Shown here: in pieces, positions 15,695-45,793 of the stretch
Layout of the letters: every line of letters starts with the position of its first letter
Position numbering within the stretch: position 1 is the stretch's first letter
Notes under the pieces: model-generated
Told to the model about the DNA's origin: nothing
Databases searched by the model: none
What the model saw: the letters and a program-made list of their open reading frames with translations, nothing else
Made by a program: the position numbers and the translations under genes
NCBI GenBank assembly: GCA_965218095.1
Contig: OZ244587.1
Span: 3,328,001 to 3,392,000, forward strand
Length of the DNA: 64,000 nucleotides
Origin: Candidatus Poribacteria bacterium
GTDB taxonomy: Bacteria > Poribacteria > WGA-4E > PCPOR2b
Direction of reading: 5' to 3'

Positions 15695-16028
15695 GTGTAT
15701 TACCTCCCTATAGACATCTCGCCCCTAACGGGGCGGAAGAAAACCTTACTTTTCCTGAAGTTAAATGGCATTATATCAGAACCGGGTTTTTACTGCAACA
15801 AAAAAAACTGTGGGCTGTGACTTGACAGTTTCACCCGCCTGTCGTATAGTAGAGCGAGCAGCACCATTTTCGATCTATCGGGCCTCTACCAGTGAAAAAC
15901 GTCTATTTTTCAAAAAATTCGCTCGGATGAAAGTTTTTTGACATGAGCGGTGTCATACAGGATGCAAGATTCAGGGTGGAAGTGCTGAATTCTTGAATCC
16001 TAAATCTCTTAATCACCGGAGCCAAACC

Positions 16029-17888
16029 GTGCGTACGGAAGATGGATATCTCATTGATAAATGCCTCAACGGCGAACCGGAAGCGTTTGGCTTGCTGGTT
16101 GATACATACAAATCCAGCCTCTATGCGTTGGCGTATGCCAGAGTGCGGAACCTCCACGACGTGGAAGACATCACCCAAGAGGCGTTTATCAAAGCGTACA
16201 AGAACCTTCGTACCTTGAAACGCGGGGACAGCTTTAAGGCGTGGCTCTATTCGATTACGTCGAATCTGTGCAAGAACTTTTTGCGCTCGAAATCTCGGCG
16301 TCCGGACGACGAATTTATCGACAATCCGGGCGTAGATGTCGCGGAACCGACGGTGGTGGATGACGCGCTTGATGACCCAATGCACGAAATGCTCCATGAA
16401 TCCTTAGCGGCGCTGCCGGCGATGTATCGAGAAGTCTTGACGCTCCACTATCTGGGCGGCATGAAAAGTCGAGAGATTGCCCAGTTTCTTGGAACATCGA
16501 AGAACACGATCGATACCCGCCTGAGACGCGCCAAATCATATCTAAAAGAGGAGATGCTTACCATGATGAGTACAACGTTTGAACAATACCGCTTACAACC
16601 GAGTTTCACTTTCCGCATTATGGAAATGATCAAAGAGACGAAGATCCAGTCTGCCCCACACAAGACGACTCTCCCCTGGGGACTTTCAATCGCAGCAGGA
16701 CTGGTTGCTATTTTTATCAGTTTCACCGTTCCCTTCAGCCCACTTTTCCCTATTGGGACGCTGATTGGTTCAGCGCTTCCCACTCAAACGCAGGTCGCGG
16801 AGTTTGGCGAGATCCCTGTTGATACCATAGAAATTACGGAGATTACTGTCCTTTCCACTAAAAAAGGGGATAGAGATTTCGGACAGAAGCCCAGGCCCAA
16901 TCCGATAAGCGCCTTCGCTCCTGCGAGACAAGAGGGGAAGTGGAGAGGGAGAGCTCGTATGCGAACTAAAAGATGGATGTTGGCTGCCACTGTTGTGAAC
17001 GGGAAGATTTATGCCATCGGCGGGTTTGGGCCTACTAGGTTTAACGCAAAGACTCTCCCAACGGTGGAGGAGTATGACCCCGTAGCGGATAAATGGACAA
17101 AGAAAGCGGACATGCCAACCCCAAGATATGTTCTGTCGGCGAGTAGCGTGAACGGGAAGATTTATGCCATCGGCGGGTGGGCGGGACGTGCGAAGGGCAC
17201 TCGTTCAACAGTGGAGGAATATGACCCAGTAACAGATACATGGACCCAGAAAGCGGACATGCCAACCTGGAGATCCTCCCTTTCCACCAGTGTGGTGAAT
17301 GGGAAGATTTATGCCATTGGCGGAGGGGAACCTGGTAAAGTATTTTCGACCGTGGAGATGTACGATCCTGTGACGGACAAATGGACCCAGAAAGCTGATA
17401 TGCTGACCGCAAGATCGGGTTTGTCCACAGACGTGGTGAATGGAAAGATTTATGCCATTGGCGGGAGTGATTCTGTTGAGGATTTTCCGACCGTGGAGAT
17501 GTACGATCCGGCGACAGATATGTGGGTGAAGAAAGCGGACATGCCAACCCCTAGATCCGATTTCGCTACAGGCGTGGCAAGGGGAGGGATTCATGCCATT
17601 GGTGGTACGGCAATGATCAGACGCGGTGAACTGGGTATATGGGAAACCATTTCAAAAGTTGAAGTGTATCAGCCGGCAAGGGACAGATGGACAAAGGAGG
17701 TCGACATGCGGGTGCCACGCGGCTATATTGCCGCCGGTACGGTCAATGGAAAGATTTATGTCATCGGCGGCACGTCAGTACGCCCTGGCCTGCCGCTTGC
17801 AAAAGTGGAAGAATTTGACACCGGATTCGCCGTCAACCCCGCAGGAAAACTCGCCACATTGTGGGGGCAAATCAAATCCGCGCGCTAG
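16029..17888 (+). CDS. ECF sigma factor - TM - Kelch propeller fusion
   Basis: DITQEAFIKAY/FKAWLYSI (sigma2), EIAQFLGTSKNTIDTRLRRA (sigma4), one TM, 6 Kelch repeats (VNGKIYAIGG..YDP..W), C-terminal AVNPAGKLATLWGQIK. Start GTG 16029 or TTG 15993. Confidence 0.9.
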   Translation: MRTEDGYLIDKCLNGEPEAFGLLVDTYKSSLYALAYARVRNLHDVEDITQEAFIKAYKNLRTLKRGDSFKAWLYSITSNLCKNFLRSKSRRPDDEFIDNPGVDVAEPTVVDDALDDPMHEMLHESLAALPAMYREVLTLHYLGGMKSREIAQFLGTSKNTIDTRLRRAKSYLKEEMLTMMSTTFEQYRLQPSFTFRIMEMIKETKIQSAPHKTTLPWGLSIAAGLVAIFISFTVPFSPLFPIGTLIGSALPTQTQVAEFGEIPVDTIEITEITVLSTKKGDRDFGQKPRPNPISAFAPARQEGKWRGRARMRTKRWMLAATVVNGKIYAIGGFGPTRFNAKTLPTVEEYDPVADKWTKKADMPTPRYVLSASSVNGKIYAIGGWAGRAKGTRSTVEEYDPVTDTWTQKADMPTWRSSLSTSVVNGKIYAIGGGEPGKVFSTVEMYDPVTDKWTQKADMLTARSGLSTDVVNGKIYAIGGSDSVEDFPTVEMYDPATDMWVKKADMPTPRSDFATGVARGGIHAIGGTAMIRRGELGIWETISKVEVYQPARDRWTKEVDMRVPRGYIAAGTVNGKIYVIGGTSVRPGLPLAKVEEFDTGFAVNPAGKLATLWGQIKSAR

Positions 17889-17962: not shown

Positions 17963-18276
17963 ATGCGCCCCCGTGCGAATCCAAAGCTGGCTTTAACTCA
18001 GTAAACGCAGATTATTCAAAATCAATTCGCTGCTGGATGACATTTTTGAGCCACTCTTCCGCGCTGGACATCTTATGCAACTGAGCGAGAAAAGCGGGTT
18101 GCGTGGCTAACTCATTGGGAAAGGGAATATAGCATACACCATATCTTTTGTCTAGAAAGTGATTTGCCTTTCAGGGGTATCCAGTTTTCGGGCCTAATCA
18201 GCAAAACGTTCGGTCTTTGAGGCGCCATTGGTCAATCTCCATTCATGGGACGATAAGGGTTGATAAAGGTTATAGC

Positions 18277-19488
18277 TCAGGCCGCCAAAATTCGCTCGTA
18301 TACGCTTATGTGTTCGCCCTCCTTCTCCTCCGAATCGACCAGTTTGAGCCATACCGCCTGATCCTTTCTGTCGCCGCTGAGTTGCTGGACGTCGCCCGCA
18401 TTCTCCGGATGGACGCCACTCCAGATCACTTCCCCATCTTGCAGGTAGATGAACACGCCAGCGTAATGCTCCACTAGCCGGTCCCGATTATCCCGAAAAA
18501 ACAGCCCCTGTTGGCATGCGGTTCGACGCAGATTGGCGATTTTTTCATTGGGGTCCATCTCTGCGGAGTCAAACTCCGCCAGGGGCGGCTTTAGCCCACC
18601 CATGTCAAAATCGATCTCGTCCAAATCCACTGTACCAAAACCGTGCTCCGCAGCCACCGCGATGGGACTGCGATCGCGACGGTAGGGCGGGTGTGGCCAG
18701 TCGAGGCGAGGGGCGGTACCCATCAGATAGGTCCCGCAAGCATCGGTGGCAATGACATGATCGCCGGCAACTAACGCATCACAGATGCGTCCCTCCCCGC
18801 CCCACTCCCGTTTTGATTGACCCGTCAAGCCGTCGATGATGTTAAGGCAGGGCTGGGTGATTAAACCGAGGTCGGGTAGCACGTAGGAGAGCCGAATAGC
18901 ATGATGAAAGTAGGTCCGAACCCGGCCGTGGGGTGGTATGGGTGGTAAACCAAAAAGGTTCTTGAGACATAACGTGATGCCCATAAAGGCATGGTTTTTC
19001 ATCTTGGCGATGGAGACAAAGGCGTCGGCCTCGCCAAGGGCAGCAGAAAGCTGGTATTCAGAGAACATCAAGCCGCCGCCGGGAACCTTGTACCGCTCGA
19101 AGGGCGGATCGCCGGCTTCGACATAAGGGATATCAAACTCCTCGAAGATTGGGCCGGTATTAAAATCGTCCCCAGGACGCTGACCAGCAGGTACCATGCT
19201 GGTATCGATAACAAAAATATGTGCGTCGGTGCGCTCCTGCAAGAGACGCAACGATGCACACAGCACATCCTCATCCACCAGTTCTTGGCGCCGCCCGCCA
19301 ATGCGACGGATGTTATCGGTACGCATCTGCATGTTTACCTTGATACCGATTTTGCGGGCTTTTTCTATCTTTTCCCAGGATCGGGTTAGGGGGGTGGTAA
19401 TCGCCTTGAGCTTTTCGTAGATTTCCTCCTGGGATGCCTTGTGACTGCATGGAATGGCACGGACTTTGTAGGCTTTTTCTTGAATCAT
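18277..19488 (-). CDS. DUF362 domain protein
   Basis: IGIKVN, KMKNHAFMGITLCLKNLFG, NIIDGL; RBS ggagg. Confidence 0.85.
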   Translation of the reverse strand: MIQEKAYKVRAIPCSHKASQEEIYEKLKAITTPLTRSWEKIEKARKIGIKVNMQMRTDNIRRIGGRRQELVDEDVLCASLRLLQERTDAHIFVIDTSMVPAGQRPGDDFNTGPIFEEFDIPYVEAGDPPFERYKVPGGGLMFSEYQLSAALGEADAFVSIAKMKNHAFMGITLCLKNLFGLPPIPPHGRVRTYFHHAIRLSYVLPDLGLITQPCLNIIDGLTGQSKREWGGEGRICDALVAGDHVIATDACGTYLMGTAPRLDWPHPPYRRDRSPIAVAAEHGFGTVDLDEIDFDMGGLKPPLAEFDSAEMDPNEKIANLRRTACQQGLFFRDNRDRLVEHYAGVFIYLQDGEVIWSGVHPENAGDVQQLSGDRKDQAVWLKLVDSEEKEGEHISVYERILAA

Positions 19489-19927
19489 GCTGAAAACCTC
19501 CTTCGATTGCGGATTGTTGCGATTCAGCGTCACGAATGAATTCGAAGGCATTCTCGTAGCGTATTTCGTAAACGGTTTTATTCGCCATTTTCAGGAATTG
19601 CCTGTCAAAACTCTATACACATGCTGTGTAAGTTGTCAAGGAATACTATTTAGAAGATTGCGCGAGGGCTAAGGATTATGGTAAAATGAAATGTGCATCA
19701 ATTGGGTTTATTGTTGCATTCGCACCCTGGCCCGGGCTTTCTCCCTCCTTGATATAGTTGGCGTCAGCAGGTATTATAGCATAGGACTTTATTCCTTTGA
19801 AAGCAAAATGGCATCAAACTGTAGTGGTCAGGAAGATGGCAGACAATTTGCGGCTTGGATTTACCGAGCAAAAGTGTCGATTGACCATTACAAAAATGGT
19901 ATCAAGCTCAGAATTTGAGGAATTACG

Positions 19928-20926
19928 ATGGCACAAACCGAAATAGCGACGAAAGGCACACAGGTTGTTGTCAGACTAGACAACAGCGTCGGAACAGACG
20001 TTTTTGAGATTCGCCATCCGGGCAGGGGGGAAGTGCTTGTTGAAACGGTGCGCACGCTGATTAGCGCAGGAACGGAACTCGGCACGCAAGCGCAGCAGCG
20101 GACACACAATCTCACCCTCGGTTATTCTAATACTGGACGGATTATCGGCCTGGGTGAAGGAGTTGAAGGCTACGAAATTGGGGACCGTGTGCTGTGCCTG
20201 GGGCGTCATGCAAGCCACGTAACGGTTTCCGCTGCGCCACAATCGCTGGCGAAGCTGCCCGACAGCGTCTCCTTTGAGGATGGCGCTTTTGGCGTACTCG
20301 GGAGTGTCTCGATGCACGGCGTCCGAAAAGCGCGGATTGAACTTGGGGAATTCGCAGCGATTACGGGGATGGGCCTCGTCGGTCAATTGGCGCTGCAACT
20401 TTCGGCGCAAACAGGCTGCGACTTGCTCATCGCAATTGATCTGAGCGATCGACGTTTGGGGCTCGCAAAGGCTGTGGGAGCGACCCACGTCCTGAACCCA
20501 GGCTGCTGCGATCTCCGTTCTGAAGTTGAAAGAATCACCGAAGGTCGTGGGTTGGACGTAATCATCGAAGCATCGGGGTATCCTGAACTCCTGCCAATTG
20601 CGTTTGATATGGCACGAATCGGTGGACGTATCATGGCGTTGGGTTCGATCTGGCATCGCAAGGTCGAGATAGATTTCATGGATTTCCATTTGAAGGAACT
20701 GGTGCTCGTCGGCTGCCATCAGCCGAAATGCCCAACAGTTGCGACGCCTGCCTTTCCGTGGACGCAGCAGTACAACCGTCGCCAGATTCTGAAGATGATT
20801 GAACGTGGTGGACTCAACGTGAGTCGTTTAATCACCCACCGTCTGCCTTACACAGAAGCGGGTGAAGCCTATCGGCTGCTGCGTGATGAACGCGATAAAT
20901 CGCTGGGAGCCATGTTGATATGGTAG
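19928..20926 (+). CDS. Zn-binding alcohol dehydrogenase / MDR family
   Basis: LISAGTE, GYSNTG, GMGLVG, ITHRLP. Confidence 0.88.
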   Translation: MAQTEIATKGTQVVVRLDNSVGTDVFEIRHPGRGEVLVETVRTLISAGTELGTQAQQRTHNLTLGYSNTGRIIGLGEGVEGYEIGDRVLCLGRHASHVTVSAAPQSLAKLPDSVSFEDGAFGVLGSVSMHGVRKARIELGEFAAITGMGLVGQLALQLSAQTGCDLLIAIDLSDRRLGLAKAVGATHVLNPGCCDLRSEVERITEGRGLDVIIEASGYPELLPIAFDMARIGGRIMALGSIWHRKVEIDFMDFHLKELVLVGCHQPKCPTVATPAFPWTQQYNRRQILKMIERGGLNVSRLITHRLPYTEAGEAYRLLRDERDKSLGAMLIW

Positions 20927-20933
20927 GAGTACA

Positions 20934-21128
20934 ATGAACAGACGCATTGTCGGTTACGATTTTGCACGGTCGCTCGCGGTGTTGGGAATGGTGGTCGTGA
21001 ATTTTAAGGTCGTCATGGGTGCTGAAAAAGCTGGATCTCATTATAAAAATCCGGGGAGCCGGAGTTCGTGGGATCTTTACGCCTATAACCTTGTGGAAAA
21101 AAGAGAGTTCCGGATAACAACAGATTGA
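20934..21128 (+). pseudogene. N-terminal fragment of a DUF418/DUF1624-like membrane protein
   Basis: RIVGYDFARSLAVLGMVVVNF, then unrelated sequence. Confidence 0.65.
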
Positions 21129-21283
21129 ATGGAATTACAACATGGACGTTCAGATTGTGGACGTCGTTGGATTCGCTGCCTTTCGGTGTATCTACGATTG
21201 TTCGCTTGCCCAAGTGCTTTGGAAGCTGTCACGAAATTTGCAAAGTACACTTCTCAATTTTCTTAAACAGGAGGAAATAAAAC

Positions 21284-22222
21284 TTGAGGAAATACGTTGA
21301 GGTGCTCATCGCGCTAGTCTGCATCATCGGTTATCTGAGGTGTACTCAGGATAAAACGCAGCTTGGTTGGCAGAAGATCGAATCGGGAACAGAGGCGCAC
21401 TTATACGGTGTCCACTTCGTTGACGCCAAACACGGTTGGGCGGTCGGCGCAGACGGTGTGGTTTTAGTCACAGAAGATGGTGGTTTGAAATGGAAGGTGC
21501 AATCACCGAAAAAAGCCATTTCCAAGAATGCACTCAATAAGGTCCACTTCTCTACCCCAACCCACGGTTGGTCAGTCAGTCTCAGGGGACGCATCCACTA
21601 TACAGGAAGCGGCGGCAAATCGTGGACAGAGCAACAGGGTCACACGCAGAGCGGATTACTTGACCTCTATTTTACAAGTCCAACAGAAGGCTGGGCAGTC
21701 GGTGGGAGTGGCATCATCCTCCACACGGATAATGGTGGTGGTTTGTGGAGTCGCCAAGATGCGCCGTCGGCCGGTCACTTGTGGGCTGTTCACTTCGCTG
21801 ACGCGAAGAACGGTTGGGTTGTCGGCAGGGAGGGGAAGATTCTTCACACTGAAAACGGCGGCAAATTCTGGCGTGAACAGCGGAGCAATACCGATCAACC
21901 GCTGCTGGACGTTTATTTCGTTGACCCACAGAACGGCTGGGCTGTTGGGACAAACGGGCAGGTCTTACATACAACGGATGGTGGTGCAAACTGGAGACGG
22001 CAGAAAAGTAACACACAGAAGACCTTGCGTGGCGTTGCATTCCCAGGCGCCGAGCAGGGCTGGGCAATCGGCGAAGATGGATTAATCTTGCATACAACCG
22101 ACGGTGGGCAAACGTGGATGCCCCAACCGAGTGGATCAGAAGAACACCTTCTGGACATCTGTCTGTATAAAGATCGCAGTTGGATCGTTGGGGCAAAAGG
22201 CACAATTCTACGTCTCGGTTAG
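21284..22222 (+). CDS. YCF48-related beta-propeller, exported
   Basis: 7 repeats of LxxVxFxxxxxGWAVGxxGxILHTxDGGxxW. Confidence 0.9.
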   Translation: MRKYVEVLIALVCIIGYLRCTQDKTQLGWQKIESGTEAHLYGVHFVDAKHGWAVGADGVVLVTEDGGLKWKVQSPKKAISKNALNKVHFSTPTHGWSVSLRGRIHYTGSGGKSWTEQQGHTQSGLLDLYFTSPTEGWAVGGSGIILHTDNGGGLWSRQDAPSAGHLWAVHFADAKNGWVVGREGKILHTENGGKFWREQRSNTDQPLLDVYFVDPQNGWAVGTNGQVLHTTDGGANWRRQKSNTQKTLRGVAFPGAEQGWAIGEDGLILHTTDGGQTWMPQPSGSEEHLLDICLYKDRSWIVGAKGTILRLG

Positions 22223-22383
22223 TTTTCCAAAACCGGTCAGAAAAAGCCGCCACTTTGAAGTTTTTGAGCCTTACCGGAGACAAATATAGCGTATGGCGGG
22301 GTACGGAGTTTGCCCGATATGGTGCAATTCCGATATCTAGGAACTGACCAGAATGTGCTAAAAATGTAATCGAAATTGCATTT

Positions 22384-22429
22384 GGCGTCATTCTGGCTGC
22401 ACCGTAGGCGTCATTCTGGCTGCACCGTA
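22384..22429. repeat. Perfect 23-bp tandem duplication
   Basis: ggcgtcattctggctgcaccgta x2. Confidence 0.9.
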
Positions 22430-22676
22430 ATAGATGAATAATGAGCTTCTTCTTTTGCACAGAATGCGGCATAGAAGTTGCTTTAGCTTCAGCCGTATCC
22501 AATTGACCGGAGAAGCTCTCGAAGCCCTGTGATAAAATTGGCAGGCGTTATCGTCGTACTTGACGGGCTCTGGGTTGGGTGCCCCTTCGTGATTGTCAAA
22601 AGCTAAAAAGGGGAAAGCGTCACGAAACGCCGTTACGCATTACGTTTTACGCATCACGCATGAGGAGGTATATGAT

Positions 22677-23231
22677 ATGTGTTGGAGACAGATTCGCGTG
22701 TTAAGTCTGATCCTCTGTTTTCTGGTAGTTTTGGGCTGTTCAGACGACGACGGTGACGAGATAATAGAGATTGATGAGCCAACAGTTGACAATACAACAC
22801 CCCCCGATGCAAATGAAGATTCTTCGTTACCGCTCGCGCCCAACTTTACGTTACCAGATACAGAGCTTGAGGAGGTCAGCCTCTCAGACTACGAAGGCAA
22901 GGTCGTCCTTTTAGATTTTTGGGCGACGTATTGTAAACCGTGCGAAGAGGAGATTCCGCTTTTCGTCGAACTCTATGATGAGTATCGGGGGCAAGGGTTT
23001 GAGATGATTGGTATCTCCCTGGATGATGGGCTGGACGTCGTCGATCCCTTTATTCAGAGACTGGGCGTCAACTACACCATTTTACTGGCAGTCCCTGGAC
23101 TTGTTCAGAAATATAACATACCTGGGCTACCTGCTGCGTTCCTTATTAATCGTAGGGGAAGAATTGTGAAAGTATTCGATGGCGAACAAGAAAAAGCAAC
23201 CTATGAAAGTGAGTTGAAGAAATGGCTATAA
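22677..23231 (+). CDS. TlpA/ResA-like thiol-disulfide reductase lipoprotein
   Basis: Lipobox VLGC; APNFTL, LDFWATYCKPC, GLP; RBS gaggagg. Confidence 0.9.
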   Translation: MCWRQIRVLSLILCFLVVLGCSDDDGDEIIEIDEPTVDNTTPPDANEDSSLPLAPNFTLPDTELEEVSLSDYEGKVVLLDFWATYCKPCEEEIPLFVELYDEYRGQGFEMIGISLDDGLDVVDPFIQRLGVNYTILLAVPGLVQKYNIPGLPAAFLINRRGRIVKVFDGEQEKATYESELKKWL

Positions 23232-24415
23232 GGAATAAACCGATTTATCAAGCTTTGGCACTGATCTTCCTGGGAGCTGCGCTGATTGTGTGGTCCGGTT
23301 GTGGCAGTGACGATAATCCTATAGTAACAGAAGATACACTAGACGACGATTCGACCCCTACAATCGATGATCCGACTCCCGTAGTCTTGACCGGTAGCCT
23401 GAAAGGGCAAGTGGAAACCATTGAAGGCGTACCGATTAACATCCAGGTCCTGCAAAATGGCAAAGTGATCGCCTCCACCCAAACCAATGCCGATGGAAAT
23501 TACCAAATCGATAGCGTTGAACCGGGAACTTACACCGTTCAAATCACAGCGAAAGGCTATCGAGCCGCCGACCTGACCGTACAAGTTATCGCTGATCAGG
23601 TTAAGCCACTTGATAAGGTGGCGCTTGAGGCATTAGAAATTCCTGTTTCTCACATTCGAGGACGCTTATCAGACCAAGCGACGAAGAAACCCCTTGACCG
23701 GGTTCGTGTTCAACTTATCGATGACGCGGGCAATATCCGTGAGGCGCTGACAAAGGCAACAGGCGTCTTTGAATTTGAAAATGTCCCCGCAAATCAGCCA
23801 TTCACCGTACTGATCGATCACGATGGATACGAGCAGCAGGAAATTAAAATCGATCCAGTCCCGGCCGCTGAAGCCGCAAAGATCACAAACGAACTTGTGC
23901 CAGTTCAGCAAGGGGAACAACCCCCGGTCGGTGAGGGTCTGGCAATCGGCGCGAAAGCGCCAGATTTTCGTCTGCCCGATGGGGATGGGAAGATTCACGC
24001 CCTCGCCGATTATGCGGTGGAAAAAAAGATTGTGCTGGTGTTTTATCGAGGGATCTGGTGACCGCATTGCATCAATCAACTCGGAGAGTTGCAGAAAAAC
24101 TATAAAAGGATTCGAGCAGAAGGGGCGGAAGTTATCGCGATTAGTTCGGATACACAGGCGGAGACGAGACGGACTATTGAGAAGGTCGAAAGGCGCTTTG
24201 GTGCCGAAATACGGTTTCCTGTGCTTTCCGATGCGGAGACACAGACCATCGCCGCCTATAATGTAACCGATCCCCTCAATCACCGGCTTGCACGTCCGGT
24301 GACCTACATCATCAATGAGAGCGGGACGATTCGGTGGAAGTTCCTTGATGTGCGGGTCGGCAATCGGATAGCGCCCGACAAGGTTATTGATAAGTTGAAA
24401 AAATTTAATAAGTAA
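23222..24415 (+). CDS. Selenoprotein: lipoprotein with two carboxypeptidase-regulatory-like domains plus an AhpC/TSA (Prx-like) domain, UGA at 24059-24061
   Basis: ORFs 23222-24061 and 24089-24415 are in frame and read VLVFYRGIW-TGA-PHCINQLGELQ (UxxC). Lipobox WSGC. 397 aa in total. Confidence 0.9.
24077..24091 (+). promoter_or_regulatory. Candidate bacterial SECIS hairpin
   Basis: CAACTC-GGA-GAGTTG; G-initiated loop 21 nt after the UGA. Confidence 0.7.
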
Positions 24416-24431
24416 AGGTGACAAACGAGCT

Positions 24432-24653
24432 TTGCTCGCCACTTTCAAATGTCCAATCTTCCATGTAGAGATGTATGAAAATTTCCGTATTGCCGCATTG
24501 GATATTGATCTTCTTAAAGTTGCAGCGAACATTGGTGGTAACTTGGAAATGCACGATAAACTGATTGTAGCGACCGCGCTTTATTTTGATGCGCCTCTGA
24601 TTACCAGGGACGGAAAAATCACTCAAAGTGAAATCGTAAGCACTGTTTGGTAG
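24432..24653 (+). pseudogene. C-terminal half of a PIN/VapC domain
   Basis: EMHDKLIVATALYFDAPLITRDGKI; N-terminal half absent. Confidence 0.75.
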
Positions 24654-24673
24654 CGTTAGAATTAACCAATCCA

Positions 24674-25855
24674 ATGGCAAGAACAACATCTTCAGTTAAT
24701 CAACCCGTATCAGATCCAATTGTGGAACAAATTCGAGCGGATTGCGATCAGATTTCACACATCAAAGCAACCGAGCCCCGATCGGTGAGTCGGCGGCGTT
24801 TTTTGCGTCAAACATCGCAAGGCGTGATTGGGGCGGGATTTGCCCTGGGGAGCCTATACTCAGCGACAAACAACGCTTTCGCTCAATTGGGTACGCCGCG
24901 CGGCACACTTCCAGAAGATCAGCTTCAAGATCAAGGGACGCCCGTGGTCGAAGCCACAAGTGAAAAGGCCTGGGAGGGTGATATACTCAATGAGCAGGTC
25001 GTCAGTGAGATGATCGATCGCGCGATAATGAAACTGACGGGACTCGACTCGGCGAAGGAGGCGTGGAAGGATTTTGTCCTGCCCAACGACATTGTCGGGA
25101 TTAAGATAAATCCCATCGGTGGGAAGCTGTTGAGTACGCATCGAATCATCGTCGATAAGATCGTCGATGGATTATACGGGGCGGGCGTCCTCAAAAATCA
25201 GATCATCATCTGGGATCGGTTTGAATCCCACCTGATTAACGCAGGTTACGAGATTAATCAAAGCGATCAAGGGGTGCGTTGCTTCGCATCGGACAGTCAA
25301 GGCGTTGGCTACGACGACGAAGTTTACTATGAAACCGAAAAGGATGTCGAGGTGCGCCGTGAGAACGAGAGCATCAGATCTCAATATACGAAGATACTCA
25401 CTCAAGAGGTGACGGCGATCATCAACGTTCCGGTGATGAAACATCACGGGATCACCGGCGTTAGCGGATGCCTGAAAAACCTTGCCTTTGGCAGCGTCGA
25501 TAACACCCGCCGCTTCCACTCAAATCCCCTGAATTGCAATCCTGCTATTGGCGACATTTTCGCGCACGCTATCCTGAAAGATAAAGTTGCTCTGAATGTC
25601 GTTGATGGGTTGCTCGCTTCGTTTGATGGTGGCCCCACATATGACCCCGATGGGGTGTGGAAGTATGGCGGCATCCTCATGAGTGTGGATCCAGTGGTGT
25701 TGGATCAGATCATTCTTCAAACGATTGAAGAGAAACGGAAGGAGCTCAAATTAGGGTCAATCACTCGATTGGAGAAATATATCCGCTCATCGTTCCAGCT
25801 AGGACTTGGCACGAATAACCTCGACGAAATCGATTATCGAGAAGTGAAGGTGTAG
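24674..25855 (+). CDS. Tat-exported DUF362 domain protein
   Basis: SRRRFLRQ twin-arginine motif; VGIKINP, NVPVMKHH, SGCLKNLAFG. Start uncertain. Confidence 0.85.
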   Translation: MARTTSSVNQPVSDPIVEQIRADCDQISHIKATEPRSVSRRRFLRQTSQGVIGAGFALGSLYSATNNAFAQLGTPRGTLPEDQLQDQGTPVVEATSEKAWEGDILNEQVVSEMIDRAIMKLTGLDSAKEAWKDFVLPNDIVGIKINPIGGKLLSTHRIIVDKIVDGLYGAGVLKNQIIIWDRFESHLINAGYEINQSDQGVRCFASDSQGVGYDDEVYYETEKDVEVRRENESIRSQYTKILTQEVTAIINVPVMKHHGITGVSGCLKNLAFGSVDNTRRFHSNPLNCNPAIGDIFAHAILKDKVALNVVDGLLASFDGGPTYDPDGVWKYGGILMSVDPVVLDQIILQTIEEKRKELKLGSITRLEKYIRSSFQLGLGTNNLDEIDYREVKV

Positions 25856-26047
25856 AAGGATGGAAGAAAAGTGAAGTCGATGGAAGAATGGAAGGAAGGG
25901 AAGAAAGGAAGGATGGAGGGATTCATTTCACATTTTACGTTTCACAGCTCCGTTCCGAGAGTCCGAGAATCGGAGTCTGTTACGCGAGACTAGGCTCTGC
26001 CCCGATCTATTGGGGTTTCACGCATCACGCAAGAGGAGGTCAGCCTC

Positions 26048-26287
26048 ATGAAGAGATTTTGGTTGGGCTGCATAGTTTTGGGGATACTTTTGGCATTAAT
26101 CAGTTTTTCCGGCTGCGTTACCACTTTTACACCGAGTGGACAACTTCAGCTTGGACTGTCTGCGTCGGCAAATGAAACGGCTGAAGTGCTTACGGACTTT
26201 GAAGCCAGCGAAGATAGAGCCATCGCGGGCGACGTCACCAAAAAGGCGGGCAGCAGTTGCGCGGGTGGCGTCTGCACAATCTACTAA
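26048..26287 (+). CDS. Small lipoprotein with C-terminal CAGGVC motif
   Basis: RBS gaggagg; signal peptide with lipobox FSGC; ends KKAGSSCAGGVCTIY. Confidence 0.75.
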   Translation: MKRFWLGCIVLGILLALISFSGCVTTFTPSGQLQLGLSASANETAEVLTDFEASEDRAIAGDVTKKAGSSCAGGVCTIY

Positions 26288-26294
26288 CAAGTGA

Positions 26295-26745
26295 TCTAAC
26301 TTTCGGCTTGCCCCCCCCCGGCCCCCCAATTCCCCGATGGATCGGGGCAGGCTTCAGGAATTTTGGCGATTCTCCCTTGCCCCCAAGGTTTCAGGGGCGG
26401 ATAGGCAATGCAAAACGCTCGGTGATGAACTCACCGAGCTACAGAACGGTGCCCGATAAAATCGGGCTAGAACCGAATCCGAGGTCTGATTCATCGGACG
26501 CCGCCTTGTAGCCTCCGATGGATCGGAGCAGAGCCTGCCCTCACGTAGCGGGGCTCTGCGATTTATCGCGGGGCGCCAATGCCCGTCATCACTCGTTTTT
26601 CCAACAAGGTGTCCGCCCCTGAACCCCCAAGGTTGGGGGATTAAGAAGGGCTGGGCAATTTACCAAAGTCAAACTAAAATTACCGATTCTAATTCATTGG
26701 GGCACGGTACGCTGCAAATTCGTTTTGCGGGCTGTGCCCCTATTT
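26295..26745. repeat. Nested MITE/REP-like palindromes
   Basis: ttcaggggcgga/tccgcccctgaa arms; several CCGAT-N2/3-ATCGG palindromes; ggggcac..gtgcccc. Confidence 0.7.
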
Positions 26746-26765
26746 CGTGAACAAGGAGAGCGCAA

Positions 26766-27989
26766 TTGCAACGACAGTCTCATCAATTACGACTCAAATC
26801 CCTCCTCTGGATCTACGCCATACTCTTTTTGTTGGTGAATGCGCCAATCACACCCGCCCAGCTCCAACGCCAATATGGTCGGGAGTTATTTCAACAGGAG
26901 GCGGAAGAACCAGCAGCCTTTGAATCTGATCTGACAATCGATTATCAGGCGAGCAACGTCTTTAATGATCACGTCGAATTTGGACTGAGTATTGATCCGA
27001 GTACAAGCAGCCTTGCCGGACGTGAAGACCCTCAACTTCAAGGCGTAATCAATCTTGCTGGCGTCAACTTTCAGGGAACTTTACCCCTTGGGAGACATTT
27101 CGGACTCAAGCTGCAATACTATCCGCAATTTGAAAATTATATCGGTGAAGATGGTCAACTCAACGAATTCGATGCGTTCACAGATCTCTTTTTGACAGAA
27201 CTCAGTTTTCGGCCAACGCTTCAACTGCCTGCCTTGACCGTATCACACCAGCTTCAGCGATTAGATCGGAAAGACGATGCTTTCGACAGCCTTCAACGTC
27301 AAATCGGTGTCCGCTTCGGCAGGCTAGTGGAGTATAATCTGCGCCTCCTGCGTTTCGATGACGATCAGACGCGGCGTGAAGATTTTCTACTCGTTGGCGC
27401 GACGAGCCACCAGGGACGCGCCCGGATACAGTTGGGGGTTCTAAAGAACGTGTTGGGGAAGTTGGAGTATTCAATCGAGCGGGAGAACTATAAGGATAAC
27501 CTGAATAACCTTGTGCTGGGTATCGCTGGGATAGAGCCGGAAGAATCTCGAACTGATGTGCGAAACTTTGCATCTGCGAAACTGATTGAAATCCCCACCA
27601 GTCGGCTTGTCTTGCAGCAGGAATTCAATCTGTTTCTAAACAGTTCAAATGTCGATTTCTATGACTTTTCCACGATTGAGGCGGCGGTCGGTACGTTTTA
27701 CAAAATCAACGGTGAGAGTTGGGCGCGTCTGCGGTTATCACGTTTGGATATAATTTTCGATGGACGCCGGGTGCGAGGTGTAGACGGCTTTGTTGATGCA
27801 AACGCGAAGAAGCGAAAGGATAATCAGTTCGGCTTAAAATTCCGGCTTAACTGGCAGTTCCGCAATTTCCTGACACTTTTTGCGGATTATCAACTCACGA
27901 CAAACGACACCAATGAAGAGAATGAAATCTTTGACTTTTTGAATTACACCAACAACATTGCGTCGCTGACTATCCAGGCGACCTATTAG
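26766..27989 (+). CDS. Putative outer-membrane beta-barrel protein
   Basis: Signal peptide, alternating amphipathic strands, C-terminal LTIQATY. Confidence 0.7.
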   Translation: MQRQSHQLRLKSLLWIYAILFLLVNAPITPAQLQRQYGRELFQQEAEEPAAFESDLTIDYQASNVFNDHVEFGLSIDPSTSSLAGREDPQLQGVINLAGVNFQGTLPLGRHFGLKLQYYPQFENYIGEDGQLNEFDAFTDLFLTELSFRPTLQLPALTVSHQLQRLDRKDDAFDSLQRQIGVRFGRLVEYNLRLLRFDDDQTRREDFLLVGATSHQGRARIQLGVLKNVLGKLEYSIERENYKDNLNNLVLGIAGIEPEESRTDVRNFASAKLIEIPTSRLVLQQEFNLFLNSSNVDFYDFSTIEAAVGTFYKINGESWARLRLSRLDIIFDGRRVRGVDGFVDANAKKRKDNQFGLKFRLNWQFRNFLTLFADYQLTTNDTNEENEIFDFLNYTNNIASLTIQATY

Positions 27990-28082
27990 AGCACGTCAGT
28001 CTCATTGAATAGGAAAATGTTGTCCTTTACGGAGAATACTTCATCGACCAAAACATTGACGAATTTTGAGGAAGGCAGGTAA

Positions 28083-28955
28083 ATGACGGACTTCACTACA
28101 ACCCTTAGCCAGATTAAGACACTGCTGGGAATCGCTGTTTTGCTGATTCTCTGGTGTTTAGAAACTTGGCTGCCTTTATTCGGAGCGCACCGGATGAATC
28201 GTCTGAGGCACGCCGGACGGAATCTAGCGATTACAGGATTCAACACCGTGACCGTTGGGCTGATGTTTTCCAGCCTCATTGCGGTGGTTGCCACTTGGAG
28301 CGGAAACCAAAAAGCCGGATTACTGCACCTTTTAGGCTGGCCTCTTTGGATAGAAACGCCGATCGCGATTCTTTTGTTTGATGGCTGGATGTATCTCTGG
28401 CACCGCGCTAACCACGTCATTCCGTTCCTCTGGCGATTTCATCGCATGCACCATACCGACTATGAAATGGATGTCACGACCGCAACACGATTTCACACCG
28501 GTGAACTCATCCTCTCGTCAGTCTTGAGACTGGTGCTCATTCCACTGTTGGGCCTCAATCTGTGGCAGGTCGTTCTGTATGAGGTGATTCTGCTGCCGGT
28601 GATCCAATTCCATCACAGCAATGTCAACTTGCCAGAAAGGTGGGATCGGTGTCTGAGGGCGCTGATCGTTTCTCCCAACATGCACCGGGTTCACCACTCG
28701 TGTTTTCAACCGGAAACGGACTCTAACTTTTCGAGTATCTTTTCGGTTTGGGATCGATTGGCGCACACGTTTCGCTGGCGGGAGGACGCGAGGACAATCG
28801 AGTTGGGATTGTCCGAGTTTGGCGACTCGCAATGGCAAACAATTTGGGGCATGCTGAAAACTCCCTTTCTGACACCGAAGAAGATAGTCAATAGACAGAA
28901 CGGGTTACCGTTCACGACACAGAGCAACCCCTTATCTCATGAGGAGAAATTGTAA
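28083..28955 (+). CDS. Sterol desaturase / fatty acid hydroxylase family
   Basis: His boxes YLWHRANH, FHRMHH, FHHSN, HRVHH. Confidence 0.92.
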   Translation: MTDFTTTLSQIKTLLGIAVLLILWCLETWLPLFGAHRMNRLRHAGRNLAITGFNTVTVGLMFSSLIAVVATWSGNQKAGLLHLLGWPLWIETPIAILLFDGWMYLWHRANHVIPFLWRFHRMHHTDYEMDVTTATRFHTGELILSSVLRLVLIPLLGLNLWQVVLYEVILLPVIQFHHSNVNLPERWDRCLRALIVSPNMHRVHHSCFQPETDSNFSSIFSVWDRLAHTFRWREDARTIELGLSEFGDSQWQTIWGMLKTPFLTPKKIVNRQNGLPFTTQSNPLSHEEKL

Positions 28956-29482
28956 TGGCAGATGAAATTTCTCAAGTAGAGGGGAGGTTGCAACCCCACT
29001 CTACCTTACCAGAACGTATCTCCAACTGTCCAGAAACCCGCTCCGCTCGATGGCGACGGTGGGACTTCTGGTGTTTGGGGACAGGCAGCCTGACCGGGTT
29101 TCTTTTTCTTCGTCCCTGTTTGTCCCTAGAAGCGCTTCAGCAATCTATTGGCAGGGAGAAGGAAAGGGCTCTCTCACAAATCTCAGCTTGGCTTCATCCC
29201 CACTGCTCATTTTTACGTGGATAGAACAACTTTACAACTTGCCTGCTCATGTCATTGCCATTCATTATAGCATACCCTGAAAATACGGGGAATAGAAAAA
29301 TGATAGTTGAGCATAACTACGCAACCGTTCTAATGCCGGGCAGAGCGTGGAAATAAGCAGTGAAAATTTACGAAACTTCAACGGGATAGATACGTTGAGT
29401 TTGGTGAGAGAAGTTCTCAAAACTCCTTGTCAACCAAGTATTGTACAATTGATGAAAATTACCTAGGCGCCAAGCCGCTCGA

Positions 29483-31828
29483 TTATTGATGCGGCTTGGC
29501 TTTTTTCTTTTTTGGTTTGATAATTTGTTCACGCGCCCATTCGCACCGTTCAATCCAATCCTCCGCGCTGTGAATCACCCCAAGGGGCAATGTGTTATCT
29601 GCGGCAATCCGGTGAAACTTCTCAATGGCTTGGTCATATTGTCCGAGCCGATACGAATTGACCCCGATGAGCCTCGTATTTTCAAGGAGCAAGAGTTGGT
29701 GCGGCAGCCCGAAAGCAACCGCTTTCAGCAGATAATGATTTGATGAGGCGTAGGCTTGATCAAAATGGAGTTGTCGTCCAATTAGATAGTACGCCGGCCC
29801 CCACGTTGGCGCCGCGTTGATGACCTCATGGAGCAATGTCATTCTGAGTCGGCTTGATGATTGGCCGATGAGCACCTGCTTGATTTTATCCTCTACATCG
29901 GCAAAGTCGAGCGCCAGCGTTGCTAGCTTGATCTGGACTTCCCGGTCGAGGGCATCAGATGGGTGAAGGGCAAAGACCTCTTGATAGCGTGAACGGGCGC
30001 CCTCATGCTCTCTCTGCTGCCAATAGACATTCCCCTCCACATTTTTCGCTTCTGCGATCTGCCTCACGCTTGCTTTGGGGTGCGCGATGATTCTCGCTGC
30101 CCACTCTAATGTTGAAAGATAATCTCCCATCTGATAATGCGTATACATTAGCCCATGCAGGTAGCGCGGATTATCGGGGTTAAATTGGTAGATCTGTTCA
30201 AATAAGTGGCTCCCAGCGCTGAAATTCGATCGGCGATACGCCCTCCACGCCTTTGCAGAAAGTTCAGCGATTTCATGGGCGCACGGTTTCTGGAAGATGC
30301 TTGGGCGTTTGAAACGGTGCTCCGCAATCGCCAGATCGACTGCCGGCAGAGAGACCGTATCCAGAAATGCCTCCCATTCTTGAACCAGCGCGGCCAGGGG
30401 TTTGCCGTAAACCTTCTCGAAATTTCCCTTTGGAAAGACACGCTTGAATTTCTCGATTCCATAAGTATCGACGAGGAAGCGCACAAAAGAACCCGCCAAC
30501 GTATAGCTCCGCGATGAGGCTTGTGTCCAGAAACCGAGCCCCATGATCCGCTGCATCCTTGGGGCAATCCGTAACTGCCGCATCGCCTGACTCCATTGAT
30601 GCGCTGTGAGCTTGCCTTCATCCCACTCTGCAGCAACAGCGAGCCCCTCATGCAGTCCGAGTTTGAGGCTCACTTTCAAGATCGGATGCCAATCCGTCGT
30701 CAATGCATGTGCTAACTCATGTTTCATGACCGGATGGGGGAAGTCCTCGTCATTAATGTGGAAGCCGTATCCAAGCGGGTCTTCAATCGATGTGCCTCGC
30801 GCTCCGATTAGCCGTTTTTTCTGTTCAGGAGATGTGTAGATATAGGATCTAACCTTCTTCGTTGGCTGGATTTGGAAGTAATGGATTAACTGCGCATAGC
30901 GGAACTCATGATCTTGCGCAATCCACTCAATCTCCCGTTCAACCCGCGAGCCCTTCTCGTAGTAAATTTTGAAATGCTCCGTCTCCTTCAACCCACCCAG
31001 TTTTTTCTCAATATACCCCCGTGTCGGACGCAAACCCAGATCTCCGCGACACAGATAGATCAGCGCGAATACCATCACCAGCGCAATGAGACGAATTCGA
31101 TGGTTTAGATCGTCAAAACGCGGCTTGAATCGACAAAGCTTCTGCCAATGGAGCATCAGTGTGAGTCGGGTATGCCTGCCAACCTCCAGTGTGTTGATCG
31201 CAAGCGACAGGAAGATCCACGCCAATAGCAATGTCGTTCCGCGTGCGATGAGCAGTATACCGGATATCACGATGCGTTCGTCATAAATGGGACCCGGGAA
31301 ATAACCGAAGGTCGAGTGATAGCCAAAGACCGGTGGGTGAAAGATGAGGTTGTAGGCAAGTGCCAGAAGCGTGACGAAGATGTAGGCAAGATAAGTGAGG
31401 TAAGCCGTCCAACGTCTCTTCAACCATAATCCGAAGAACACGCCTGCGGCGGTTGCATAGGCGCAACTGACCACCGGCAGAAGGAGGAAGAAAGCGAAAC
31501 CTTCCAAGAAATCGCAGTTTTTGACACGAAATGCGTTCAGCAGGATAATGATCAGGGGCAAGACCAGCAGTGTCAAGCCGTCCCCAAATACTCGCCAGAA
31601 CAGCGCCATGACGACCTGAGAGGCAGCGCCTCTGACAGCTTGTGTGCGACATCTGAGGTGTTGCACACCCGTTACGGCGATATGGGCCCCCGCAAATGAA
31701 ATACCGATAGCGAAGACCGTGCAGAATTCAAATGCCAGGAGGTTAAACAGTGGAAGATTTGCTAAAACCAACGCAAGGAGCGTAAACGCTATGAACCAGA
31801 TCCAGTAGGAGAAGGATTTGAAGGTCAT
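29483..31828 (-). CDS. Multi-TM membrane protein with HExxH gluzincin-like peptidase domain and TPRs
   Basis: N-terminal TMs; KHELAH..LHEGLA; C-terminal TPR-like helices. Confidence 0.8.
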   Translation of the reverse strand: MTFKSFSYWIWFIAFTLLALVLANLPLFNLLAFEFCTVFAIGISFAGAHIAVTGVQHLRCRTQAVRGAASQVVMALFWRVFGDGLTLLVLPLIIILLNAFRVKNCDFLEGFAFFLLLPVVSCAYATAAGVFFGLWLKRRWTAYLTYLAYIFVTLLALAYNLIFHPPVFGYHSTFGYFPGPIYDERIVISGILLIARGTTLLLAWIFLSLAINTLEVGRHTRLTLMLHWQKLCRFKPRFDDLNHRIRLIALVMVFALIYLCRGDLGLRPTRGYIEKKLGGLKETEHFKIYYEKGSRVEREIEWIAQDHEFRYAQLIHYFQIQPTKKVRSYIYTSPEQKKRLIGARGTSIEDPLGYGFHINDEDFPHPVMKHELAHALTTDWHPILKVSLKLGLHEGLAVAAEWDEGKLTAHQWSQAMRQLRIAPRMQRIMGLGFWTQASSRSYTLAGSFVRFLVDTYGIEKFKRVFPKGNFEKVYGKPLAALVQEWEAFLDTVSLPAVDLAIAEHRFKRPSIFQKPCAHEIAELSAKAWRAYRRSNFSAGSHLFEQIYQFNPDNPRYLHGLMYTHYQMGDYLSTLEWAARIIAHPKASVRQIAEAKNVEGNVYWQQREHEGARSRYQEVFALHPSDALDREVQIKLATLALDFADVEDKIKQVLIGQSSSRLRMTLLHEVINAAPTWGPAYYLIGRQLHFDQAYASSNHYLLKAVAFGLPHQLLLLENTRLIGVNSYRLGQYDQAIEKFHRIAADNTLPLGVIHSAEDWIERCEWAREQIIKPKKKKAKPHQ

Positions 31829-32023
31829 AAAATATAAACATTAGAAAGCAGAAAAACGAAAGATTAAGCCGATTGACAAGTTAGCATGTGAAACGCCAAA
31901 TCCATGGATAAGATATTTACGTTTCACGTATCAAGCCTCACACAAGCATTGATTCATTTTGCATAGTGTGGGGAAAATAAAACCCCAATAATTCACTTGA
32001 CTTGACAATAGAGTTATGGAATA

Positions 32024-45785: not shown

Positions 45786-45793
45786 AAAACCTG

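Follow-up and report, generated by a model that had tools for sequence, protein, structure and literature searches.

Exported thiol and selenol redoxins linked to a cysteine-tailed mini-lipoprotein and a predicted outer-membrane barrel across Candidatus Poribacteria

DUF3570 proteins are outer-membrane barrels. Gene clusters that combine DUF3570 with ApbE, a thioredoxin-like protein and DUF4266, often together with DsbD, are described by Meheust et al. 2021 (PMC8238504): there, ApbE flavinylates DUF3570 at two [S/T]GA[S/T] motifs, and DUF4266 carries a C-terminal C-x-C motif, small secreted proteins of this type being proposed to cycle the redox state of their C-terminal cysteines. A TlpA/DUF4266/DUF3570 neighborhood is also mentioned in a preprint (bioRxiv 10.1101/2023.06.07.544157). 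These sources bear out an earlier sequence-only reading of the DNA studied here, which had pointed to such loci in other bacteria, and its analogy to them holds at the level of architecture. Here, we describe the locus in question, a module of exported redoxins, a cysteine-tailed mini-lipoprotein and a predicted β-barrel protein, within 64,000 nucleotides of a Candidatus Poribacteria genome (contig OZ244587.1, positions 3,328,001 to 3,392,000, forward strand; hereafter the window, numbered from its first base). The source genome is one contig of 6.35 Mb and is 93.87% complete. A literature search, with most subscription journals outside its coverage, found no paper on this module.

Two further kinds of system are relevant. 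TlpA with ScoI/CoxB (copper) and CcmG/ResA (heme attachment) are reductases that keep extracytoplasmic cysteine pairs reduced. Outer-membrane lipoprotein-barrel pairs include Slam (type XI) with surface lipoproteins, RcsF through OmpA/C/F, and LptE in LptD.

All the genes that the sequence-only reading had listed between positions 21284 and 28955 are present, on the plus strand and where it had placed them:

21284-22222 (+): YCF48-like propeller; PSII_BNR (PF14870), 147.3 bits
22593-23231, likely true start 22677 (+): TlpA/ResA-like redoxin lipoprotein; AhpC-TSA 84.8 bits, Redoxin 70.7 bits
23222-24415 (+): second redoxin, a selenoredoxin lipoprotein; two CarboxypepD_reg stretches and AhpC-TSA, 111.1 bits
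24059-24061 (+): UGA (selenocysteine) codon; an in-frame TGA within the second redoxin
24076-24092 (+): hairpin resembling a selenocysteine insertion sequence (SECIS); stem CAACUC/GAGUUG, G-first triloop
24647-25855, probable start 24674 (+): DUF362 protein exported by the twin-arginine (Tat) route; PF04015, 72.3 bits (cut-off 24)
26048-26287 (+): mini-lipoprotein of 79 amino acids (aa); lipobox S-G-C, C-terminus CAGGVCTIY
26766-27989 (+): 407-aa barrel protein; predicted 16-strand outer-membrane β-barrel
28083-28955 (+): membrane protein of the fatty-acid hydroxylase/sterol desaturase family; FA_hydroxylase (PF04116), 91.2 bits
29483-31828 (-): convergent tetratricopeptide repeat (TPR)/peptidase-like gene that bounds the block

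The Poribacteria module resembles the ApbE/DUF3570/DUF4266 clusters in its parts: a thioredoxin-like protein that is exported, a small secreted protein whose C-terminus bears cysteines, and an envelope protein of ~400-420 aa. In both, DsbD is the presumed electron source. It differs from the DUF3570 system in having selenocysteine in at least one redoxin, in the Tat-exported DUF362 and YCF48-like genes that often go along with it, and in its tail, which reads C-x4-C-x-I-[YF] rather than C-x-C. We judged DUF3570 and DUF4266 membership by Pfam models only. DUF3570 (PF12094) matches 0 of 12 barrels at E≤10 and nothing at E≤1 in a six-frame search of the whole genome, and the mini-lipoprotein has no match to DUF4266 (PF14086) at E≤10. 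The flavin-attachment motif [ST]GA[ST] occurs in 0 of 12 barrels. A search of the one-contig genome for ApbE (PF02424) at E≤0.001 came back empty; run on control genomes, it exceeded the cut-off in 8 of 14. The best DUF4266 match anywhere in the genome (14 bits, E 0.73) lies at another site and runs across stop codons. Because the genome gives no DUF3570, no ApbE and only this 14-bit DUF4266 match, we regard the module, judged by these models, as an architectural analogue of the DUF3570/DUF4266/ApbE system and not as a member of it.

Like TlpA/ScoI/CoxB and CcmG/ResA, the module encodes a membrane-tethered thioredoxin-fold reductase with a W-C-x-x-C motif beside a protein that depends on a cysteine pair, but its presumed substrate is a lipoprotein tail plus a barrel instead of a copper chaperone or apocytochrome. 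Like Slam, RcsF/Omp and LptE/LptD, it encodes a small lipoprotein beside the barrel that it is predicted to bind; unlike the Slam, RcsF and LptE partners, this lipoprotein is far smaller, and its conserved part is a tail with a cysteine pair. With Prx-like and SelL-related selenoproteins the second redoxin shares the AhpC/TSA fold, a selenocysteine that comes first in a C-x-x-C-type motif and a SECIS-like hairpin just downstream. Unlike them, the window family is a lipoprotein with two N-terminal CarboxypepD_reg-like domains, and in one family of Poribacteria (f2) it forms tandem arrays of up to three.

A linked core in several gene orders

We compared the window with relatives' loci: 20 were taken for their barrel, 12 for their mini-lipoprotein and 4 (in family f4) for DUF362, and to these were added 4 others and two contigs from public collections. 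Named homologs of the window proteins are all labelled Candidatus Poribacteria. Linkage was counted over the 26 loci that hold the mini-lipoprotein. The gene orders, by lineage, are as follows:

f1 (the family of the source genome): YCF48-like, TlpA, selenoredoxin, DUF362, mini-lipoprotein, barrel
G002, f3 and f2: redoxins, DUF362, mini-lipoprotein; barrel at another site
f4: selenoredoxin, TlpA, mini-lipoprotein, barrel
f5 (L062): two TlpA-type genes, mini-lipoprotein, barrel

At least one thioredoxin-fold gene lies upstream of the mini-lipoprotein gene, on the same strand and adjoining it, in 25 of 26 loci. The exception (L041) is a 4.8-kb contig of a distant metagenome-assembled genome (MAG), where an ankyrin gene precedes the mini-lipoprotein and the barrel gene starts 2 bases past the mini-lipoprotein stop codon. 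The barrel adjoins the mini-lipoprotein in 14 of the 26 loci (f1, f4, f5 and L041); other barrels lie downstream of a ThiG-like open reading frame (ORF), and Pfam confirms DAO/ThiS/ThiG in one such locus (L029). Co-occurrence in other genomes, on which the sequence-only reading had staked its proposal, is thus found for the redoxin(s), the mini-lipoprotein and the barrel, which stay together in no fewer than four gene orders and across five families. The core of the module is at least one thioredoxin-fold redoxin, the mini-lipoprotein and the barrel.

Which redoxin accompanies the other two varies by lineage. TlpA stands alone in genus g5; L062 has two TlpA-type genes; TlpA and a selenoredoxin occur together in g1, g3, g4, f3 and f4 (in G002, TlpA and one selenoredoxin); and f2 has one to three selenoredoxins, TlpA being absent. 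That the redoxin types interchange across lineages argues that TlpA-type and selenocysteine-type redoxins serve one substrate. In g5, which belongs to f1, the selenoredoxin is absent from L025, a ~3-kb insertion takes its place in L022, and a 62-aa remnant is left in L040; all three loci retain TlpA, DUF362, the mini-lipoprotein and the barrel, with a mini-lipoprotein/barrel gap of ~1.4 kb in L022 and L025 and ~350 bases in L040. The selenoredoxin, which the sequence-only reading had counted as a member of the system, is therefore dispensable in one genus, where TlpA alone is left. The sterol desaturase-family protein, also counted in, turned out to be a local neighbor only: the FA hydroxylase gene was found by tblastn in 0 of 40 other loci.

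A second set of selenoredoxin, TlpA, mini-lipoprotein and barrel genes is present in one genome (L054; G036:C410:24000-42000). It looks like a decaying duplicate because the barrel frame is broken by a TAA and a TGA.

Presence and absence follow the same core. Of 41 related genomes, the same 40 have a match to the mini-lipoprotein profile and to the barrel, and the remaining one (G026) has neither. Across the phylum, the mini-lipoprotein occurs in 142 of 151 sampled genomes; eight of the nine without it have no barrel match, and one has a partial match of 23 bits (positive control for the barrel search, G044: 204.8 bits). In two genomes, G026 (f3) and G050 (f2), mini-lipoprotein and barrel are both missing, and so is any full-length selenoredoxin of the cluster type, the best selenoredoxin matches being 50.7 bits and a 139-bit domain-only paralog (controls, 244 and 369). 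G050 is a one-contig genome, and its congener G058 carries the full set. G026 and G050 each retain DUF362 (orthologues at 65% and 56% identity), and no redoxin gene lies close to it. Kinship among the genomes means that they do not count as independent trials; the losses are spread over two families.

Mini-lipoprotein, barrel and their predicted complex

The mature mini-lipoprotein has ~56 residues and three cysteines, because the lipobox cysteine, which is the lipid anchor, is joined by a pair in the tail. Across nine aligned sequences, conservation is limited to the lipobox G-C, a single Phe within an acidic middle, and the tail C-A-x-G-x-C-x-I-[YF], which the stop codon directly follows. 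A tenth, from a different order, ends in C-V-G-G-V-C-V-I-F, and all 10 sequences read fit the tail pattern C-[AV]-x-G-x-C-x-I-[YF]. Its two cysteines, C71 and C76 in the window protein, are the sole conserved cysteine pair among the non-redoxin proteins compared, namely the mini-lipoprotein and the barrel. No Pfam or NCBIfam model matches the mini-lipoprotein, and a search of the ESM Atlas returned no usable match. A profile run against 5.8 billion proteins found 140 at E≤0.01, and every named source is Poribacteria.

We considered whether the terminal C-T-I-Y could be a eukaryote-type CaaX box and dropped this reading: the protein is a lipoprotein exported by the Sec pathway, and the tail is retained in the distant, apparently non-sponge Poribacteria MAG L041.

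The barrel protein has a Sec signal peptide and ends in L-T-I-Q-A-T-Y. An AlphaFold2 model built on a 12-row alignment has 16 strands, with a mean predicted local distance difference test score (pLDDT) of 78.5 and a predicted template-modeling score (pTM) of 0.74; the mature protein consists of the barrel only, with no N-terminal TPR or POTRA domain. The top conserved motif among 12 aligned Poribacteria barrels, N-x-H-[IV]-E-[FLY]-G-L-S-[IV]-D-P-x-T-S, spans the end of strand 1 into the first loop (residues 72-85, modeled at low confidence); H69, E71, S75 and D77 within it are invariant. The mature barrel of the window has no cysteine, and 10 of 12 family members have none.

By sequence, the barrel matches no Pfam or NCBIfam family. 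BBP2_2 (PF10082) reaches 3 of 12 members below its cut-off (best E 0.0035), and the Slam/SlipAM model (PF04575) reaches 0 of 12 at E≤10. A profile search of 1.84 billion representative sequences found 50 proteins at E≤0.001, which makes this a small family; distant proteins found with the profile match BBP2_2, OMP_b-brl or SlipAM (P0169, BBP2_2, 51.2 bits; P0166, SlipAM, 33.4 bits). A three-row search (A3) found two related loci, both in Poribacteria MAGs. By structure, Foldseek placed OccD2 first (E 1.9e-8, TM score 0.43-0.47), and VIA-align gave CdiB (Z 19.3, root-mean-square deviation 4.0, 283 aligned), FhaC (18.9), PelB (18.6), BcsC (18.5) and PgaA (18.4), with ordinary porins at Z 18.3-18.5, tied with the TpsB proteins and exopolysaccharide exporters. 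The ESM Atlas returned only unnamed clusters and generic porin families. We therefore gave up assigning the barrel to a specific family from fold searches, which yielded only generic 16-18-strand barrels with tied top scores.

We modeled the barrel (residues 50-407) with the mature mini-lipoprotein (23-79) in ESMFold2. The interface score ipSAE was 0.60 (runs 0.60, 0.63 and 0.58), as against 0.02 for the best of three controls; the runs have at least 61% of contacts in common, and the partner pLDDT is at least 58. The pass mark used is reached by 116 of 157 solved complexes and 2 of 215 mismatched pairs, and an ipSAE of 0.60 or lower is found for 18 of those 157 solved complexes and for both passing mismatches. 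We count the score as modest added support because the prior from adjacency and matching presence was already high. The barrel-peptide contact expected in the sequence-only reading thus survives as a predicted complex, weakly supported by the model (0.60 versus 0.02), whereas its interface was not reported.

Beyond the phylum set, one metagenome contig (L063:2576-3867) encodes a distant relative of the barrel (hhalign against the barrel alignment A1: probability 88.9%, E 2.4e-6, 198 columns). A 62-aa lipoprotein ending in K-C-A-S-C-R-Q overlaps the start of this sister barrel, with no redoxin nearby; neither protein has a Pfam match. Metagenome scans for the sister family returned nothing with alignment A7 and only L063 with P0151. 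The pairing is a single case and a lead only. It fits an older, wider pairing of barrels with cysteine-tailed mini-lipoproteins, of which DUF3570/DUF4266 could be another branch.

Redoxins, selenocysteine and accessory genes

The first redoxin has the motif W-A-T-Y-C-K-P-C and a lipobox L-G-C, and C-x-x-C is present in 17 of 17 TlpA-type genes of related loci. It stays below the NCBIfam equivalog cut-offs for both ResA (114.3 versus 170) and TlpA (56.7 versus 230), and for this reason its assignment as a TlpA/ResA-type thiol:disulfide oxidoreductase is made at family level only.

The second redoxin is a genuine selenoprotein, in line with the selenium use proposed from the sequence alone, and several results carry this conclusion. 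First, with TGA read as selenocysteine (U), its site is F-Y-R-G-I-W-U-P-H-C, and TGA is found at the same site in 28 of 28 related AhpC/TSA-type domains from relatives' loci, the tandem paralogs of f2 included. Second, a hairpin, CAACUC-GNN-GAGUUG, lies 17 bases past the UGA. In an alignment of 27 sequences, 94.7% of cells are paired, and in four of seven pairs both partners vary (11 cells); the covariation score was not attained in any of 500 shuffles, and shifting the partner columns cuts pairing to 14-46%. These figures are not probabilities, because the stem overlaps coding sequence (Q-L-G-E-L-Q; in f4, Q-L-V-Q-L-L) and the sequences are related; the stem is retained where the encoded protein differs. 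Third, the genome holds the decoding machinery, with tRNA-Sec (76.6 bits), SelB (353.7 bits) and SelA (605.7 bits) all above their cut-offs and the SelB gene directly upstream of tRNA-Sec.

Curated models do not name this protein. An Rfam scan of positions 18000-32000 gave no match at E≤1 and no curated SECIS family, and no NCBIfam selenoprotein model reached its cut-off for the window selenoredoxin: the Prx-like and SelL-related models NF040769, NF041054 and NF040737 scored 38.8/120, 24.3/300 and 36.2/270 (score/cut-off, as listed). In peroxiredoxins, the peroxidatic cysteine lies in a P-x-x-x-T-x-x-C context. The selenoredoxin matches AhpC/TSA (PF00578) at 111.1 bits, and its W-U-P-H-C site reads as a motif of thioredoxin type.

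Selenoredoxins also occur in greater number in some relatives. Three tandem AhpC/TSA-fold genes with TGA lie directly 5' of DUF362 and the mini-lipoprotein in the f2 loci L047, L048 and L050, with sites such as W-U-P-F-C, L-U-P-I-C and G-U-T-L-C and no TlpA-type gene. Four genomes (G026, G029, G050 and G058) hold several more short Prx-like genes outside the module, each with one in-frame TGA. These sequences suggest that Poribacteria may be a selenoredoxin-rich phylum.

The DUF362 protein carries an RRRFL twin-arginine signal (TIGR01409, 16.8 versus a cut-off of 16.7), and the RR motif is present in 16 of 16 orthologs. DUF362 is placed in Pfam clan CL0471 together with the LarA N-terminal domain (PMC11770544). 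No solved relative was found by sequence. Its AlphaFold2 model, built on a 12-row alignment, was poor (pLDDT 48.6). In f4, a DUF362 orthologue (57-60% identical) lies at another site in four of five genomes and adjoins a YCF48-like lipoprotein gene in two of four loci. The YCF48-like propeller of the window has a signal peptide that includes a cysteine; it matched only the PSII_BNR fold family, the NCBIfam Ycf48 equivalog scoring 160.8 bits against a cut-off of 326. Its gene lies upstream of TlpA in five of six other f1 loci. DUF362 and the YCF48-like protein, both placed in the system by the sequence-only reading, are thus frequent partners, but separable ones: DUF362 is kept in G026 and G050 and lies off-site in f4. 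We read them as accessory partners that can also work without the core.

A second DUF362 paralog in the window (18277-19551, -; 77.4 bits) has no signal peptide, an extension of ~100 residues at its C-terminus and 25% identity to the Tat-exported copy.

In one sponge metatranscriptome study, four RNA libraries yielded short contigs that map to the TlpA, selenoredoxin, DUF362, mini-lipoprotein, barrel and hydroxylase genes. A piece at 23884-24116 covers the TGA, the piece on the mini-lipoprotein has the top depth (7.47), pieces from three runs lie across the spacer at 26349-26703, and one (27926-28218) joins the end of the barrel gene to the start of the hydroxylase gene. Strand, transcript ends and co-transcription cannot be read from such contigs, and uncovered bins (such as 21000-21860 and 27314-27600) are uninformative.

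Two other loci of the window stand apart from the module. At 44946-46720 (+), genes for a HindIII-like restriction endonuclease (242 bits) and for an N6/N4 DNA methylase interrupt a row of heme-biosynthesis genes, flanked by the genes for glutamyl-tRNA reductase and porphobilinogen deaminase. At 15993-17888 (+), a single 631-aa ORF fuses regions 2 and 4 of an extracytoplasmic function (ECF) sigma factor with a Kelch-repeat propeller.

A proposed thiol/selenol relay and its rivals

Genes, export signals, selenocysteine decoding, core linkage, shared presence and absence, a weak complex and non-membership in DUF3570/DUF4266 are all computed results. From them we infer the direction of electron flow, the tail as redoxin substrate, its docking in the barrel and any physiological role. 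We suggest, with a probability of roughly 0.45, that the module acts as a thiol/selenol relay: by keeping the tail cysteines reduced, it would let the tail work in or on the barrel. The genome has a single gene for a DsbD-type membrane protein (DsbD_TM, 171.9 bits, at 1.90 Mb), through which reducing power would reach the periplasm and pass to the TlpA-type and/or selenocysteine redoxins. Their task would be to maintain the Cys-x4-Cys pair of the mini-lipoprotein in its reduced form, or to recycle it. From its anchor in the outer membrane, the mini-lipoprotein would put its tail in or on the barrel, where the reduced thiols may form a redox-active or ligand-binding (metal or cofactor) element. 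With the barrel free of cysteine in 10 of 12 members and the tail pair invariant, the tail appears to be the only plausible thiol substrate.

Several points weigh against this relay. It rests on computation at every step. The DsbD gene lies 1.4 Mb from the module, with no specific link to it, and AhpC/TSA-fold proteins can be peroxidases without a protein substrate. In 12 of 26 loci, barrel and mini-lipoprotein are not linked, and the complex prediction is a weak pass for which no interface was returned. DUF362 lies between the redoxins and the mini-lipoprotein in f1-f3, yet it outlives the loss of the core. The linkage is partly inherited, because all genomes come from one phylum; the several rearranged orders argue for selection, yet they do not amount to an independent statistical test. 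Depth is low (2-7) in the RNA-library contigs, which may include DNA and have no silent-stretch control.

The redoxins could instead be a peroxide- or disulfide-stress pair, and the mini-lipoprotein and barrel a separate structural or transport pair that is co-regulated with them and no more. We consider two such unrelated functions unlikely, although this is the alternative that survives best. Both redoxins do match AhpC/TSA best (84.8 and 111.1 bits), with weak NCBIfam matches below cut-off to thiol peroxidases and PrxU, but their active site, W-[CU]-x-x-C, reads as one of thioredoxin type. Many more UGA-containing Prx-like paralogs are found elsewhere in Poribacteria genomes, yet it is the cluster-type selenoredoxin that is gone together with the mini-lipoprotein and barrel in G026 and G050, where the generic Prx-like paralogs stay. 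The 12 loci with an unlinked barrel also suit a split into two functions, whereas in 25 of 26 loci, across four or more gene orders, the mini-lipoprotein has a redoxin beside it, and the one conserved cysteine pair of the mini-lipoprotein and barrel lies in the tail.

A second alternative makes the barrel a translocator that moves the mini-lipoprotein, or its tail, to the surface in the manner of Slam (type XI) or two-partner secretion. The redoxins would then keep the cysteines reduced only until export, and the pair would oxidize outside afterwards. We find both parts of this proposal rather improbable. CdiB and FhaC (TpsB proteins) and the exporters PelB, BcsC and PgaA are among the top VIA-align matches, but these tie with ordinary porins (Z 18.3-18.5). 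SlipAM is matched weakly by distant relatives of the barrel (P0166, 33.4 bits) but by none of the 12 barrels themselves at E≤10, and the N-terminal TPR or POTRA domain is missing. The placement of a substrate beside its barrel, which is typical of Slam, is seen in 14 of 26 loci.

It is very unlikely that the genes have no functional link and are neighbors merely inherited within one phylum. Related genomes supply the evidence throughout, and the window itself is loosely packed: the gaps, in gene order, are 370, -10, 231, 192, 478 and 93 bases, the negative value being a 10-base overlap of the TlpA and selenoredoxin genes. The gaps of 192-478 bases include insertions. The 478-base spacer before the barrel (26290-26760) consists of short GC-rich palindromic repeats with 34 further sites in the genome at 72-100% identity, and the selenoredoxin/DUF362 gap holds a PIN-like fragment. 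In relatives, however, the mini-lipoprotein/barrel spacer is ~90 bases and the same genes abut or overlap: DUF362 begins 3 bases after the redoxin in L024, and the barrel follows the mini-lipoprotein by 2 bases in L041. Linkage also survives at least four rearranged orders, and mini-lipoprotein and barrel presence matches in 40 of 41 genomes, both being gone in G026 (f3) and G050 (f2).

The PIN-like fragment is a 73-aa ORF (24432-24653, +) with weak likeness to the C-terminal part of PIN domains (PF01850, E 0.014; PF10130, E 0.01), probably the remnant of a toxin gene.

That the locus is a highly diverged ApbE/DUF3570/DUF4266/thioredoxin-like system is largely refuted: the architecture is the same as in PMC8238504 (thioredoxin-like protein, small C-terminal-Cys protein, ~400-aa envelope protein), but PF12094 and [ST]GA[ST] are found in 0 of 12 barrels, the mini-lipoprotein does not match PF14086, the genome gives no ApbE match, and the tail is not C-x-C.

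The module is a phylum-wide set of two unnamed families plus a family of lipoprotein selenoredoxins. The cysteine-tailed mini-lipoprotein and the 16-strand barrel are thereby defined as families that are near-universal in an uncultivated phylum of sponge symbionts and are tied to exported thiol and selenol reductases. The known bacterial selenoproteins are joined by a family of selenoredoxin lipoproteins, of which as many as three selenocysteine genes can stand in tandem. Candidate roles for the relay include metal or cofactor handling, electron export and a redox-gated plug. A bolder version, to which we give little credence, is a heme-free and flavin-free route of reducing power to the outer membrane, in which the tail would be threaded into the barrel and thiol chemistry delivered at or beyond it. 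The module is a second, sequence-unrelated case of an architecture whose first case, DUF3570/DUF4266, is likewise unexplained, and the contrast between one system that uses ApbE and flavin and another that uses selenium without either may help to settle the logic that the two share.

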